From: an uncultured Nitrososphaerales archaeon
GTDB taxonomy: Archaea > Thermoproteota > Nitrososphaeria > Nitrososphaerales > Nitrososphaeraceae
Direction: 5' to 3'
NCBI GenBank assembly: GCA_963713605.1
Contig: CAVQMO010000001.1
Coordinates: 384,001 to 448,000, forward strand
DNA length: 64,000 nt
This document shows, in pieces, positions 42,001-45,000 of the stretch. Made by a program: the position numbers. How positions within the stretch are numbered: the first letter of the stretch is position 1; every line of letters starts with the position of its first letter.

Positions 42001-45000
42001 ACGATCTTGAAGATTTAGGTTGCCGTTGACGATTATGATGCGACATGGACAGGCAGAGAATAATGTTAATAAGATTTTGGTAGGTAGGCACGTTGAAGCA
42101 CATCTTACAGAATACGGAAAGCGGCAGGTTGCAGACACAGCGATGTACTTGAAGGAAATACCGATAACCAGGATACTAGTTAGCCCGGTAATTAGAACGA
42201 TTGAAACTGCGAAAATAGTATGTGAGATATTAGGTAGCACCTATGAGATCGACGAACGGCTCTATGAGATAGAGCTAGGAAAACTGGTTGGCATGAATTA
42301 TGAAGAAATTGTTCAAAAATATGGCAATCTCTTCTTAAAATTTTATTCCGGCAATGATCCGACTTTGCTTAGCTACGGCGTAGAATCATTCACATCTGTA
42401 AAAAATCGTATAAACAATCTGCTCGAAGAACTTGGACACAAATGCGAGGATGAGAATGTCCTTCTAATAACTCATCTAGATCCGATTAAAGCAGCAATTT
42501 CGATTCTTTTAGATCTTAATCCGAAGTCCCTTTATAGATGGCACATCCGCAACGCGTCTTTAACAATACTAAGGCAAGAGAGCCAGATCTATTCACTTTC
42601 GGCTGTAAATTTGATGAGTATCAATAGATATTTTGAAGAATAGTAGGGTTCCTCTTGAGTAAAAAATTCACATCCTCATCTTCATCGTTTTTCCCGTCAT
42701 CAACCTTGATACAACTCAAGTCACTTCTAGAAGGCCAGAGAGTTGACACAGTATCATTGCATAACAAATTAAATAGTTTGAGACCTCACTAAATCACATC
42801 CCAGATGGATTTATTCACTAGGGCTCAGGCGCACATATCGGGATATTGTAATGATTTTATCTCCTTAAAATTATTCTTCTTCTGTTTGTCACTTATTATA
42901 CTTGGCTTTGCCTCTTCTAACATTGCATTTTCTCATCTAGAACACCTACCTCATTATAATGGGGGCTTCTCTGGCGTTGGTAAATATTACATATTTCAAG
43001 GCATGGAGCCTGACTATCCACGACCTGCAGAGCCAGCGGGAATTGTCTTTAGCATTCAAGACAACAAAGGAAACGACATGACAAACATTGTAACTATGGT
43101 TGAAATCTATGATGAGAAATCTGGCGACCGTATTGCAGTATTTCCATGGACCAAGCACGATGTGGGCGATTTCAGGCTCTATTATACATTTCCACAAATT
43201 GGTAATTATGTACTCGTCGTGAGCGTGGCTGATGATCTACCTGCTAGTGAGAGCAAAATCGGCCTTTCAGGTCCGGCGAGGAGTACCCTTCTGGATAGAT
43301 CGGATTGTGGCTGTGAACGAGGTTTGATGAATATTTCTGTAACTAATAACTTTGGCACGATCTATTACAGTTCAATTTTCACCGGAATTTTTATGGGCAT
43401 CGCAGTATTAGGTGCGGTTCTTGGCCTTATCTTTCTCAAGAGAAGAAAGACAATCATGTCTGCAAATATCAGAGATAGGCAAGTCTTGAAGTATTGCATA
43501 TTGTTCTTAGCGATGGCATCGGGGTTTGTACATATAGCGGTCTTCCCTGGACACGCTTCTTTAAGAATTGAATATAGCATCTTCCTCTTTACCGCGGGAG
43601 CGGCTCAATTCACATATGGGATGGTTTACGTATTAATTTCATTAAACGAATCCAAGATTTCAAATGATATAGCCTCTGTCAGAAAACACTATCGGAAAAC
43701 TGCGGTTTTGAACATGTTTGGTCTGATCGGCAGCTCTGTATTACTTGGCCTATATCTTTACTCTGTTATCTTTCCACCTCCGTTATCTCCTAACAATGTT
43801 GCTGAGCAGGTAGAGGTGGCAGGTGTAATTGCTAAATCGACTGAGGCTATATTGGTGGGAGGCGTTGTGTACCTCATGATCTGGGAACGTCGAAGGTTTA
43901 GATCTGAGTTGATCCGATACCAGCAACAATCGGGAAGTCAATTATGAAGGAACCAGTTTTGATTTTTGTAGAAATTGTAGCCTATGACTGATATTAGAAA
44001 CCTTAAATTAGAAGTACAGGACTAATGAGCTAACGAGTGGATCTGCAGTGGTATCTAGATTAACAATATCTTGGACCATGATAGGATGTCTATCAGTTAT
44101 AGGTTATTTGTCTATTTTCGGTAGCACTTTCACGGATGTTCTTGCTCAGGAAGCTGAAGGAGCTTATCGTAAGAAGAGTAGCGATATGGGACCTATTCTA
44201 TCAAGGTATGGTAGCGGCTTTTGTAGTCGGAGCGCTGGTACAGGGTACATTAATTTACATCTATTGGCGATTTAGAGAATCCAATCCCAAAAACAAACCG
44301 CGAACCGAAAAGAAGGAGGCATAACGAAAATGGGTCATGCTACCGTAGAATGGATCTATGTGGGCGCTGTAATATCAATTCTATGTTGGGTAGGTGCCTC
44401 TGCATGGAACGTAGAACACGAAATTGAGGCTGCACCTCCGGACGCGGAGACTATCAAGGTTATTGGACAGCAATGGTTTTGGACTTTTGAGCATGAGGAC
44501 GGAACAAAAGAGGTTGGGGAACTACACGTCAAACAGAATGTCCCGTACAGATTTGAAATTACCTCTCAAGATGTTATCCACGATTTCAATGTCCCTGATT
44601 TCGTCATTTTGATGGATGCCGTTCCAGGGAGGATTAACACACTCTGGAATGTATTTGATGTTCCAGGGGAATATTTGATCCAGTGCAGGGAATACTGCGG
44701 TCTGCTTCATTATAATATGAGAGCTAAATTGTTGGTTGAACCTGCCTCTGCAGAGTCAGCAGAATCGCCTCAGTCAGCCCCTACAACAGCAGGTGCACCA
44801 GTTGCATCACCTTCAGCTGCTCCAGGGAACCAAACTAACCAATCCAGCACCACAGCAGGACCTTCAGTGACTCTTACTATTCCAGAAGGCGCATCAGTAC
44901 AAGGAAATCCAGCATATGATCCAGATCCATTAACCGTCTCTGTAGGAGACGTAGTGGAGGTATCAAATAAAGACACAGTACCCCATACAGCCACAAGTGG

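Follow-up and report, generated by a model that had tools for sequence, protein, structure and literature searches.

A membrane-anchored CtaK/YtkA-like protein is a candidate CuA assembly factor for the heme-copper oxidase of ammonia-oxidising archaea

We examined a window of 64,000 nucleotides from an uncultured Nitrososphaerales archaeon and found that the gene g00575 may encode a membrane-anchored, CtaK/YtkA-like factor that helps assemble the copper (CuA) site of the archaeal heme-copper oxidase. We give this reading an even chance of being right; metal binding by the protein is a prediction. Much of the world's nitrification is the work of ammonia-oxidising archaea, whose respiratory chain is almost wholly copper-based, and g00575 is a concrete, conserved, cox-linked candidate for the metallation of their oxidase. 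The open reading frame (42805-43947, + strand) starts with ATG, is uninterrupted, encodes 380 aa and gave a 100% self-match. It is an intact, conserved gene with full-length relatives that span 344-424 aa. The initial annotation had described it as lacking a family match and having 420 nameless relatives. Both statements were borne out: the best E-values were 0.062 in Pfam and 0.11 in NCBIfam, and scoring of 8000 candidates gave 420 relatives at E <= 0.001, each of them unnamed or labelled 'hypothetical'. A search of 1.84 billion representatives yielded 101 clusters. Sequence searches of the PDB gave only a chance match with g00575 itself (best E 0.76) and nothing with a 47-row profile of the family, and an Atlas search with the membrane part (residues 186-380) gave no usable match. 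Full-text searches of one literature collection returned no paper naming the presumed orthologue from N. viennensis and none joining Thaumarchaeota, oxidase assembly and Sco1.

The genes follow the order first proposed, namely g00575, g00576, COX2, COX1, g00580 and heme A synthase, all on the + strand. The 62-aa g00576 (44136..44324) is the first membrane helix of subunit II of the oxidase, split off as a gene of its own, with a match to positions 9-49 of TIGR02866 (E 5.5e-4) that is below the cut-off; it is conserved ahead of COX2 in the loci of relatives. COX2 (44330..45160) contains a canonical CuA motif (Hx34Cx3Cx3Hx2M) and a C-terminal plastocyanin-like domain. This CuA site has to be metallated. 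COX1 (45499..47033) had been read as split in two. The frame is indeed broken, but into three parts (45499-46146, 46094-46612 and 46434-47033); in relatives COX1 is a single frame, and public contigs differ from this sequence by one base at 46118 and at 46457. Further along are a double cupredoxin protein (46996..47899), split by a frameshift in the present assembly, and a compact, 155-aa form of the heme A synthase CtaA (47904..48371). It is doubtful that g00575 belongs to an operon with these genes because a gap of 188 bp precedes g00576. Public RNA was uninformative about expression or co-transcription of g00575: none of nine listed runs contains more than 0.31 of the sampled words, contigs from four runs covered the cox genes in patches, and g00575 itself was represented by one depth bin in one run and one 169-base contig of approximately 95% identity in another.

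Gene linkage across genomes is the strongest new evidence for a tie to the oxidase. A full-length relative adjoins cox or ctaA genes in 49 of 80 loci, and does so in three arrangements: ahead of g00576/COX2 (29 loci), after ctaA (17) and convergent with ctaA (3). A position at the head of the oxidase genes, as in the source genome, is thus no rule. In another 11 loci, each with 2.5 kb or more seen on either side, the gene is unlinked and stands among housekeeping genes; these neighbours (ribosomal proteins, RNase P subunits, a helicase and regulators) provided no functional lead. Genomes that have the full-length copy elsewhere keep a copy of 205-217 aa, with the N-terminal His, a CxC motif and one helix, directly after ctaA. 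In a sample of 121 genomes of the order, 53 had a match, and in 33 of these 53 a match lies no more than 5 kb from COX1. All 13 genomes of Nitrosopumilaceae with a match to the N-domain only have it 1.67-1.72 kb from COX1. The linkage crosses families of ammonia-oxidising archaea and includes shorter paralogues comprised of the beta-sandwich plus an anchor. In one family (f48) the matches and COX1 are on separate contigs. Two families (f41 and f44) have COX1 in 12/13 and 11/14 genomes and g00575-type matches in 0/13 and 0/14. We saw no linkage to amo genes in the 80 loci, where the queries were the oxidase and flanking genes only. In most informative loci the linked partners are cox and ctaA rather than amo or cop genes.

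We also looked for known copper-delivery proteins. No Sco, PCuAC, Cox11 or DUF420 match above cut-off was found in the source genome, which is 87.5% complete. PCuAC was found in 0/121 genomes of the order, clear Sco matches in this sample were confined to a few other families, and some Nitrosopumilaceae had borderline Sco-like matches of 23-25 bits. One Caa3_CtaG match and four CopD proteins in the source genome could supply copper by an alternative route. The initial annotation's proposal of a role in copper handling for the terminal oxidase is strengthened by the recurrent cox/ctaA linkage, the lack of Sco, PCuAC and Cox11 matches in this genome, and the canonical CuA motif of COX2.

Linkage of this kind would be equally expected of an oxidase subunit with a structural or accessory role, for example one replacing a missing subunit III or IV, with the helical bundle packed on CoxA/CoxB and the sandwich covering the CuA domain. 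We regard this as unlikely. A search for COX3 in the 87.5% complete source genome found none, and a membrane anchor is kept in all forms of the g00575 family. Prediction of a complex between g00575 and residues 1-140 of COX2, membrane helix included, gave a score of 0.47 (runs 0.46, 0.50 and 0.47; best of three controls 0.00), with at least 75% of contacts shared between runs and a partner pLDDT of at least 69. The mark used was passed by 116/157 solved complexes and 2/215 mismatches, and at scores of 0.60 or less only 18/157 solved complexes passed and both passing mismatches fell here; according to the tool's own note, most passes at such a score are wrong unless the pairing is likely beforehand. 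We take the prediction as weak support for the assembly-factor reading; it would fit a subunit too. Against a subunit, the cox-linked short forms do without the bundle, and 11 loci have the full-length gene away from oxidase genes. Expression in N. viennensis points the same way: NVIE_027570, a hypothetical gene after ctaA that is the presumed orthologue by gene order only, is listed at 8.35, about 4 units below coxB (12.54) and near the assembly enzyme ctaA (9.45), with coxA1 at 11.65 (PMC7785015 supplement; the units look log2-scaled). The same supplement lists an increase of NVIE_027570 when copper is limiting (+0.66, adjusted p 1.6e-12), which we count, together with these levels, in favour of an assembly factor. 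The presumed orthologue is also not named among the proteins in the accessible part of a BN-PAGE study, which targeted AMO (PMC10030591).

The predicted architecture of g00575 is that of an exported, membrane-bound protein. Residues 1-43 (42805..42933) form a hydrophobic stretch ending in A-F-S that is a predicted signal peptide and includes C15 and C27. Among 75 genome-derived members, position -1 is A, S or G in 75/75 and position -3 is A, S, V or T in 75/75, residues compatible with signal peptidase at the predicted cut. His44 would be the first residue after this cut, at the start of a predicted mature N-terminus H44-L-E-H47-L-P-H50-Y-N52 (HxxHxxHYN; 42934..42960), a segment modelled at a confidence of only approximately 52. 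An Ig-like beta-sandwich that is YtkA-like by profile (residues 54-180; 42964..43344) follows, with C168-x-C170 (43306..43314) at the start of its last strand. Membrane helix 1 (residues 183-214; 43351..43446), then KRRK, leads to a four-helix membrane bundle (residues 220-379; 43462..43941) that also exists as stand-alone proteins. The positive-inside distribution of charges suggests that H243-x6-H250 (43531..43554) lies at the outer end of bundle helix 1 and that the PPPLSPN loop (43774..43794), between the last two helices, is also outside. The stand-alone bundle modules keep the His pair and have PPFSPE as the counterpart of the loop.

H44, H47, H50, N52, D86, D91, E100, W115, D122, C168, C170, H243 and H250 are kept in all 75 genome-derived members. 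Most residues previously listed as invariant are therefore so, except for M98, which is found in 72/75 members and varies in distant representatives, and H50, which varies in three distant representatives. The only Met residues in the sandwich domain are 67, 92 and 98, and there is no Met-rich loop. CxC is retained in forms of 205-217 aa and missing from forms of 173-196 aa. Because the shortest cox-linked forms are without CxC and keep just one His of the three, the N-terminal His is the sole one of these residues that every form shares.

An AF2 model built from the 47-row alignment had an overall pLDDT of 77.3, surpassing that of the earlier model, and a pTM of 0.60. It places strands at 54-179 and helices at 183-214, 220-251, 255-281, 289-322 and 338-379. 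Deduced from Ig-fold topology alone, the His motif and CxC would both lie at the end of the sandwich that is far from the membrane. The reported likeness to the copper proteins CrdA, PmoD and HftA was reproduced in part. VIA-align matched the model to CrdA (9ll2; Z 10.5, rmsd 2.7, 104 of 108 residues) and PmoD (6cpd; Z 10.5, rmsd 2.9, 106 residues), and HftA was outside the top 50. The lead over macroglobulin and complement domains was lost, with CD109 (Z 10.7), alpha2-macroglobulin (10.3) and C4 (10.1) tying with CrdA and PmoD. Foldseek E-values were weak, at 7e-5 and up, with PmoD at rank 5. The sandwich has a generic E-set fold. Comparison of the membrane bundle with solved structures gave generic four-helix bundles with a top Z of 12.1, and the tool's note treats helical bundles below approximately 13 as uninformative.

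Sequence profiles pointed to a better-supported kinship, with YtkA/CtaK. Comparison of the g00575 family with YtkA by hhalign gave 87.5% (P 3.6e-6, 72 columns) and, in a further comparison, 89.2% (P 2.2e-6, 70 columns), using a YtkA alignment of only 12-13 rows from related archaea. The short forms alone gave 82.8% (P 9.4e-6). Ten reversed or shuffled nulls and two unrelated beta-sandwich families, plastocyanin and COX2, gave P 0.083-0.66. Atlas leads agreed on YtkA (0.84-0.86). A YtkA profile found CrdA in the PDB (E 0.0033), the same protein that is a structural match of the g00575 model. The archaeal YtkA rows share no common His or Met. With Pfam, g00575 had no match to YtkA-like (PF13115) at E <= 1, short of the gathering score of 25.9 bits, and PF13115 matched 5/47 members at E 0.0014-0.1, every one below the cut-off. 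Kinship to YtkA over Ig-like domains generally is unproven because Filamin (5/47) and MG2 (5/47) match as many members below threshold. YtkA/CtaK is the nearest family by profile, below the Pfam threshold and better supported than PmoD. The 'PmoD-like' label is unsupported, since a CxnC near the N-terminus is absent and no Cys is conserved but the C168xC170 pair close to the domain's C-terminus, macroglobulins reach an equal fold score, and YtkA/CtaK is nearest.

Other families were considered and set aside. CopC (PF04234) gave 4.5% by hhalign (P 0.0091, 23 columns) and matched none of 47 members at E <= 0.1. For CopD (PF05425), comparison of the membrane part with 12 archaeal rows gave 0.6% (P 0.091), and the control with a reversed sequence gave P 0.51. 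CitMHS (PF03600) matched 12/47 members over the membrane helices (best E 2.3e-5), all below the 31.9-bit cut-off, which we read as compositional. DUF7475 (PF24287; 31.3 bits) was found below threshold in the proteins P0130, P0173 and P0191 (E 0.0015-0.033) and in 1/47 members, and a search with g00575 itself gave no match. There was no Pfam match in g00575 to Sco1/SenC (PF02630), which has a thioredoxin fold with CxxxC and a distal His rather than a beta-sandwich, or to the PCuAC model (PF04314). Cox11/CtaG (PF04442) had no Pfam match in g00575 or in the genome, and it is outside the top 50 structures, a result that leaves room for likeness.

As a CuA assembly factor, the g00575 protein would be exported and its signal peptide cut after A-x-S/A, leaving His44 as a free N-terminus. 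The amino-terminal HxxHxxH might then take up Cu(II), as do the N-terminal His sites of CopC and YcnI. CxC, which would lie at this end of the sandwich too, could bind or reduce copper and complete a Cys2+His set comparable to that of Sco, or act like the CxC of Cox11. The sandwich domain would pass copper to apo-CoxB while the five helices keep the protein next to the oxidase. The outer face formed by H243, H250 and the PPPLSPN loop may be a second metal site or a docking surface. A more speculative version, which we think unlikely, is a lineage-specific, membrane-integral metallochaperone with no bacterial or mitochondrial counterpart. Here, Cu(II) would be taken up by the N-terminal His, CxC would handle Cu(I) or reduction, and the bundle, a new four-helix module (H-x6-H, PPxSPE), would add a second, His2 site; the three would jointly relay copper from the membrane face to CuA in place of Sco and PCuAC. 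The module family may serve other archaeal copper enzymes too, such as AMO. For the assembly-factor reading, candidate residues for mutation are H44, H47, H50, C168, C170, H243 and H250.

It is improbable that g00575 instead works in copper uptake or homeostasis at large, as a membrane relay of the CopC/CopD type that has no special tie to the oxidase and could just as well serve AMO, plastocyanins and multicopper oxidases. The combination of an outer metal domain and a membrane domain does parallel CopC-CopD, unlinked copies exist, and the membrane module is also found alone. In addition, a CopC-CopD-YtkA fusion in the source genome is preceded, at approximately 0.6 kb, by a distant 201-aa paralogue with the N-terminal His and one helix. 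However, profiles give no support for CopC (P 0.009) or CopD (P 0.09), and the informative loci mostly have cox/ctaA rather than amo or cop neighbours. We think it more improbable still that g00575 is an Ig-domain membrane protein without metal, such as an envelope or assembly scaffold, in which the His and Cys are structural (a disulfide or pH sensor). Such a protein would fit the generic E-set fold, the QDxxGND hairpin turn, which is common in Ig-like domains and appears also in CopC and YtkA rows, and the few candidate ligands left in the shortest forms. It would not account for a His right after a canonical cleavage site in 75/75 members and in the short forms, the steady linkage to a copper enzyme, or the profile link to a copper-associated family. 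A PmoD-type redox protein, with a His/Cys centre, possibly across a dimer, that exchanges electrons with the oxidase or AMO, would suit the PmoD fold match, the invariant His and Cys and the ammonia-oxidising hosts, but is very improbable given the absence of CxnC or Cx7MxHxnC near the N-terminus (motifs as defined in the accessible part of PMC6189053), a Z score tied with unrelated Ig-like domains, the several cupredoxins already encoded in the cox cluster, and no amo linkage in the 80 loci searched with oxidase and flanking genes.

We compared the proposed assembly factor with known systems. Sco1/SenC and PCuAC share with g00575 the proposed job and an extracytoplasmic membrane tether; their folds are unrelated and there is no sequence match. 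The candidate ligands of g00575 recall the Cys2 + His set of Sco. Cox11/CtaG, which inserts CuB, has one anchor helix and an Ig-like domain with the CxC-type copper motif CFCF. This motif resembles the CxC of g00575, with no Pfam match between the two proteins. PmoD/AmoD of methane- and ammonia-oxidising bacteria, like g00575, have a signal peptide, a beta-sandwich and a C-terminal membrane anchor, and the hosts are alike in being copper-dependent ammonia oxidisers. PmoD has one helix whereas g00575 has five (one in the short forms), and g00575 is linked to cox rather than amo genes. The available text of PMC6189053 defines the PmoD family by two conserved Cys near the domain N-terminus (CxnC), with Cx7MxHxnC in the CuA-forming group, and reports no homologues in archaeal ammonia oxidisers; in g00575, C168 and C170 are separated by a single residue and stand close to the domain's C-terminus. 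CrdA of H. pylori, a CopC-like copper resistance protein, is the most complete of the tied top matches to the g00575 sandwich. It lacks His and Cys and binds via the Met-rich loop MMxEMPGMxxMxEM, according to the accessible part of PMC9182242. CrdA is soluble, whereas g00575 is membrane-bound and has no such loop.

The closest parallel is CtaK (YtkA), a proposed CuA assembly factor of Bacillus that B. subtilis requires for the activity of its CuA-dependent oxidase (available portions of PMC9145763 and PMC13344008). The YtkA-like domain (PF13115) includes the C-terminal domains of YcnJ and of archaeal CopC-CopD-YtkA fusions. CtaK and g00575 are alike in having a membrane-tethered Ig-like domain that is extracytoplasmic (for g00575, as predicted from topology), a genetic link with a CuA-containing heme-copper oxidase, a profile similarity of 87-89% and hosts in which PCuAC was not detected (for CtaK, according to PMC9145763). 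They differ in the anchor, which is a lipid in CtaK and five helices in g00575, and in the candidate ligands. As described in PMC9145763, CtaK has conserved His/Met, with His118 essential in B. subtilis, and a C-terminal His tail, in contrast to the N-terminal HxxHxxH and CxC of g00575. Unlike CtaK, g00575 has no Sco partner that we could find in its source genome. If our reading is correct, the CtaK/YtkA type of CuA helper reaches from Bacillus into the archaea.

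The g00575 gene is an intact open reading frame of 380 amino acids (window 42805-43947, + strand) with no family assignment, its best Pfam (E 0.062) and NCBIfam (E 0.11) matches both being at chance level. Re-annotation with ORF calls, Pfam, and NCBIfam bore out the gene order in the initial annotation, which had placed g00575 at the head of the heme-copper oxidase genes. A histidine phosphatase gene (42020-42643) ends 161 bp upstream, and 188 bp downstream begins g00576 (44136-44324), a 62-aa ORF whose match to TIGR02866 (positions 9-49, E 5.5e-4) covers the first membrane helix of subunit II. 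This is followed by COX2 (44330-45160) with a C-terminal plastocyanin-like domain, COX1 (45499-47033), a split gene for a double cupredoxin protein (46996-47899), and a compact CtaA heme A synthase of 155 aa. Subunit II is itself split across 44136-45160 into the separate first-helix ORF and COX2, which is joined to the plastocyanin-like domain by a Pro/Ser/Ala-rich linker. Nitrosopumilaceae COX2 is 140 aa long and has no such tail. A block encoding PspA/IM30, a small two-helix protein, an F420-oxidoreductase-like protein, and the histidine phosphatase (40065-42643) is kept upstream of the cox cluster in relatives from Nitrososphaeraceae, at identities as low as about 60%; its last three genes are also there in one Nitrosopumilaceae genome.

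COX1 had been described as broken into two frames. It is broken, into three. One base is absent from public contigs at 46118 (one contig, RNA run X6) and another at 46457 (one contig, run X2, otherwise identical across 336 bases), and both COX1 and the double cupredoxin gene are single frames in relatives. This points to one-base insertion errors of the assembly, not a dead gene. An iron-ADH-like gene, probably a malonic semialdehyde reductase (48690-49641), is likewise split by a frame change and is a single 318-aa ORF at a related locus (L070). Four frame breaks inside about 4 kb, two of them in COX1, suggest indel-prone sequencing.

The g00575 family is narrow and belongs to ammonia-oxidizing archaea (AOA) and their kin. 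A word-indexed search (8000 scored candidates) found 420 relatives at E <= 0.001, all unnamed or "hypothetical" and three labeled Nitrososphaeraceae. Across 1.84 billion representatives searched exhaustively, just 101 clusters matched, many only as fragments; 57 were at E <= 1e-10 and 17 at E <= 1e-30. From 122 relatives in species-representative genomes we kept 80 loci, titled Nitrososphaeraceae, Nitrososphaera, Nitrosocosmicus, Nitrosopolaris, or Nitrosopumilus/Nitrosopumilaceae, with some only "Thermoproteota archaeon" and one "bacterium".

Linkage to the oxidase genes is the strongest new evidence on g00575. Among the 80 loci, the gene stands before g00576/COX2 in 29, directly after ctaA in 17, and convergent with ctaA in three; 11 are unlinked over at least 2.5 kb on either side, where they adjoin housekeeping genes, and the flanks of 20 are too short for a call. 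Of 121 genomes sampled from the order, 53 had a match, including 13/13 of family f1, 9/9 of f38, 9/11 of f43, 10/14 of f2, and 6/14 of f48. The match lay within 5 kb of COX1 in 33 of the 53, including all ten matched single-contig genomes. This count used 82 COX1 rows (all at E <= 4.4e-75, plus pieces in the source genome and G169); by eye, none of the lower-scoring rows left out was near a match in the 20 unlinked genomes, whose match and COX1 were on separate contigs or which had no strong COX1 row. Families f41 and f44 of this sample contain COX1 and no g00575-family match, so the family tracks the AOA-type oxidase and not every oxidase of the order.

Shorter relatives also lie near COX1. 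Whole-genome profile searches found a match in 14 of 19 Nitrosopumilaceae genomes of the phylum sample. In 13 of these 14 it was to the N-domain only, in an ORF of 173-196 aa, and all 13 were 1.67-1.72 kb from COX1; at the locus examined, the short gene closes the cluster and faces ctaA in convergent orientation. These proteins begin with a signal peptide, after which a predicted N-terminal His (H-S-[LM]-F-N-S) precedes the beta-sandwich and a single anchor helix, and they lack the CxC. Four genomes of one Nitrososphaeraceae genus have a full-length copy elsewhere and a shorter match 1.25-1.3 kb from COX1. In the two examined, the shorter gene follows ctaA directly and encodes a 205-217 aa protein that keeps the N-terminal His, the CxC, and one helix. 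In another family of the phylum (locus L115, genome G114), a 186-aa beta-sandwich and anchor relative without the N-terminal His is 1.6 kb from COX1; from this, the oxidase association may extend past ammonia oxidizers.

The AlphaFold2 model of g00575 (47-row alignment; pLDDT 77.3, pTM 0.60) has an N-terminal helix (residues 15-36) and a stretch of low confidence (37-53), which lead into a beta-sandwich (54-179); a long helix (183-214) and four further helices (220-251, 255-281, 289-322, 338-379) follow. Relative to H44, position -1 holds A, S, or G and position -3 holds A, S, V, or T in 75/75 members taken from genomes. This reads as a classic signal-peptidase pattern, so the mature protein is predicted to start at His44 with the motif H-[LF]-x-H-x-x-H-Y-N. 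The columns H44, H47, H50, N52, D86, D91, E100, W115, D122, C168, C170, and H243, previously listed as invariant, are so in all 75, as is H250; M98, also on that list, is present in 72/75. H50 and M98 vary in the most distant representatives. The charged stretches KRRK following helix 1, HYRK between the second and third bundle helices, and ERRRFR at the end suggest an N-out, C-in topology that would put H243, H250, and a PPPLSPN loop on the outer face. Ig-fold topology would bring the His segment and the CxC, which opens the last strand, together at the membrane-distal end.

The initial annotation had called this domain PmoD/CrdA-like. Using VIA-align against 48,161 chains, the structural matches recurred (CrdA 9ll2, Z 10.5, rmsd 2.7, 104/108 residues; PmoD 6cpd, Z 10.5, rmsd 2.9, 106 residues) and were tied by CD109 (Z 10.7), alpha2-macroglobulin (10.3), and complement C4 (10.1). 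Foldseek gave weak E-values (>= 7e-5) to many Ig-like domains, ranking PmoD 5, CrdA 43, and FetP 49. Copper is not indicated by the modeled fold alone. Excerpts of PMC6189053 give as the PmoD hallmark two conserved Cys near the domain N-terminus, with Cx7MxHxnC in the CuA-forming group, and excerpts of PMC9182242 describe a Met-rich loop in CrdA; as defined there, all are absent from g00575. With its defining Cys motif absent and the Z-scores tied with macroglobulin-type domains, the PmoD-like label fails.

Sequence profiles lead to YtkA. Below threshold, three distant full-length relatives match almost the entire YtkA-like domain; such matches occur in 5/47 aligned members, and sub-threshold matches to Filamin and to MG2 are just as frequent (5/47 each). 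We compared the N-domain by hhalign with a small alignment of 13 archaeal YtkA domains from related organisms (12 that PF13115 picked up in the phylum sample, plus a fusion protein of the source genome) and obtained 87.5% over 72 columns (P 3.6e-6), and 89.2% (P 2.2e-6) with separately built alignments. Controls (reversed, eight column-shuffled, plastocyanin, COX2) gave P 0.083-0.66, and archaeal CopC only 4.5% (P 0.0091). The 173-196 aa forms scored 95.8% against the N-domain (P 7.8e-9) and 82.8% against YtkA (P 9.4e-6). A PDB search with the YtkA profile reached CrdA (E 0.0033), so the structural match and the sequence lead converge. YtkA-like clusters in an Atlas feature search (0.84-0.86) rate as leads only. 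The fusion is a 787-aa CopC-CopD-YtkA protein on contig C5 (L093:220-2583; Pfam E 4.1e-15, 3e-14, 0.003), and about 0.6 kb upstream is a 201-aa distant g00575 beta-sandwich paralogue (L002:1402-2007) that has one anchor helix and is predicted to start with His. Two Nitrosopumilaceae loci (L096, L099) encode stand-alone 157-aa YtkA-domain proteins whose very Met-rich flanks (MMGMCSMM, SMMSMMNNH) make them look like Cu(I) binders.

The membrane part resembles only generic helical bundles among solved structures, and its DUF7475 matches are sub-threshold. Profile comparison does not support a CopD-like membrane part. The four-helix module is an independent unit: proteins of 158-247 aa without the beta-sandwich carry H-x6-H, most rows also having PPFSPE, and ORFs of 121-152 aa match it in several AOA families (for example 10/11 genomes of f43). 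Stand-alone module proteins from several AOA families (P0173, P0178, P0185, P0191, P0195, P0193, P0218; loci L133, L134) fall in no named family and have H-x6-H in 7/7 and PPFSPE in most, with an acidic low-complexity N-terminal region in some.

COX2 has a complete CuA motif (Hx34Cx3Cx3Hx2M), conserved without exception across 16 rows. The source genome (87.5% complete) has no Sco, PCuAC, Cox11, DUF420/CtaM, or COX3 above cut-off; it has a Caa3_CtaG-type match (38 bits) and four CopD proteins. PCuAC is in 0/121 genomes of the order, where strong Sco matches are restricted to a few other families (f1 has one weak match in 13); some Nitrosopumilaceae have borderline Sco-like matches of 23-25 bits. 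In Nitrososphaera viennensis, the hypothetical gene NVIE_027570 lies between ctaA and "malonic semialdehyde reductase". Because Nitrososphaera loci share the order ctaA, family member, iron-ADH-like gene, we take it as the g00575 orthologue, by position only. In the supplementary expression sheet of PMC7785015, whose values appear log2-scaled, NVIE_027570 is at 8.35 in replete and 8.82 in copper-limited cells (+0.66, adjusted p 1.6e-12), ctaA at 9.45 replete (+0.73 under limitation), coxA1 at 11.65 (+1.21), and coxB at 12.54. On that sheet, this positional orthologue has the level of an assembly gene, not of a subunit. A predicted complex of COX2 (1-140) and g00575 (44-380), both given as alignments, scored 0.47 (runs 0.46, 0.50, 0.47; best of three controls 0.00), a level at which most passes are wrong for pairings that were not likely to begin with. 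Contact agreement between runs was at least 75% and partner pLDDT at least 69. In calibration, 116/157 solved complexes and 2/215 mismatches reached the mark, and at or below 0.60 the mark was reached by just 18 of the 157 solved complexes and by both passing mismatches. The verdict of weak support makes this a small addition to the case.

The observation on g00575 stands, its ORF, gene order, and fold matches having been reproduced, and the copper-assembly reading proposed with it is plausible, mainly from the conserved linkage and the YtkA/CtaK-type profile match. That g00575 is specifically a CtaK-like CuA assembly factor we judge an even chance. An accessory oxidase subunit would also fit beside COX2 and is unlikely at the expression level of the orthologue. 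A general copper relay, in a family with some unlinked copies, is improbable beside so much oxidase linkage. A non-metal role, compatible with the macroglobulin-type matches, is a shade more doubtful with His and Cys so conserved, and a redox copper protein, despite those same residues, is least probable of all.

The assembly reading would make g00575 a helper of a known kind. YtkA is CtaK of Bacillus subtilis, a lipoprotein; according to excerpts of PMC9145763 and PMC13344008, its loss causes a Sco-like, copper-remediable defect of the CuA-containing caa3 oxidase, and its function overlaps with that of the YcnJ YtkA domain. What would be new beside this YtkA/CtaK-type helper is the fusion of a remote YtkA-like domain, bearing a His/Cys set of its own, with an undescribed membrane module, in a form specific to ammonia-oxidizing archaea.
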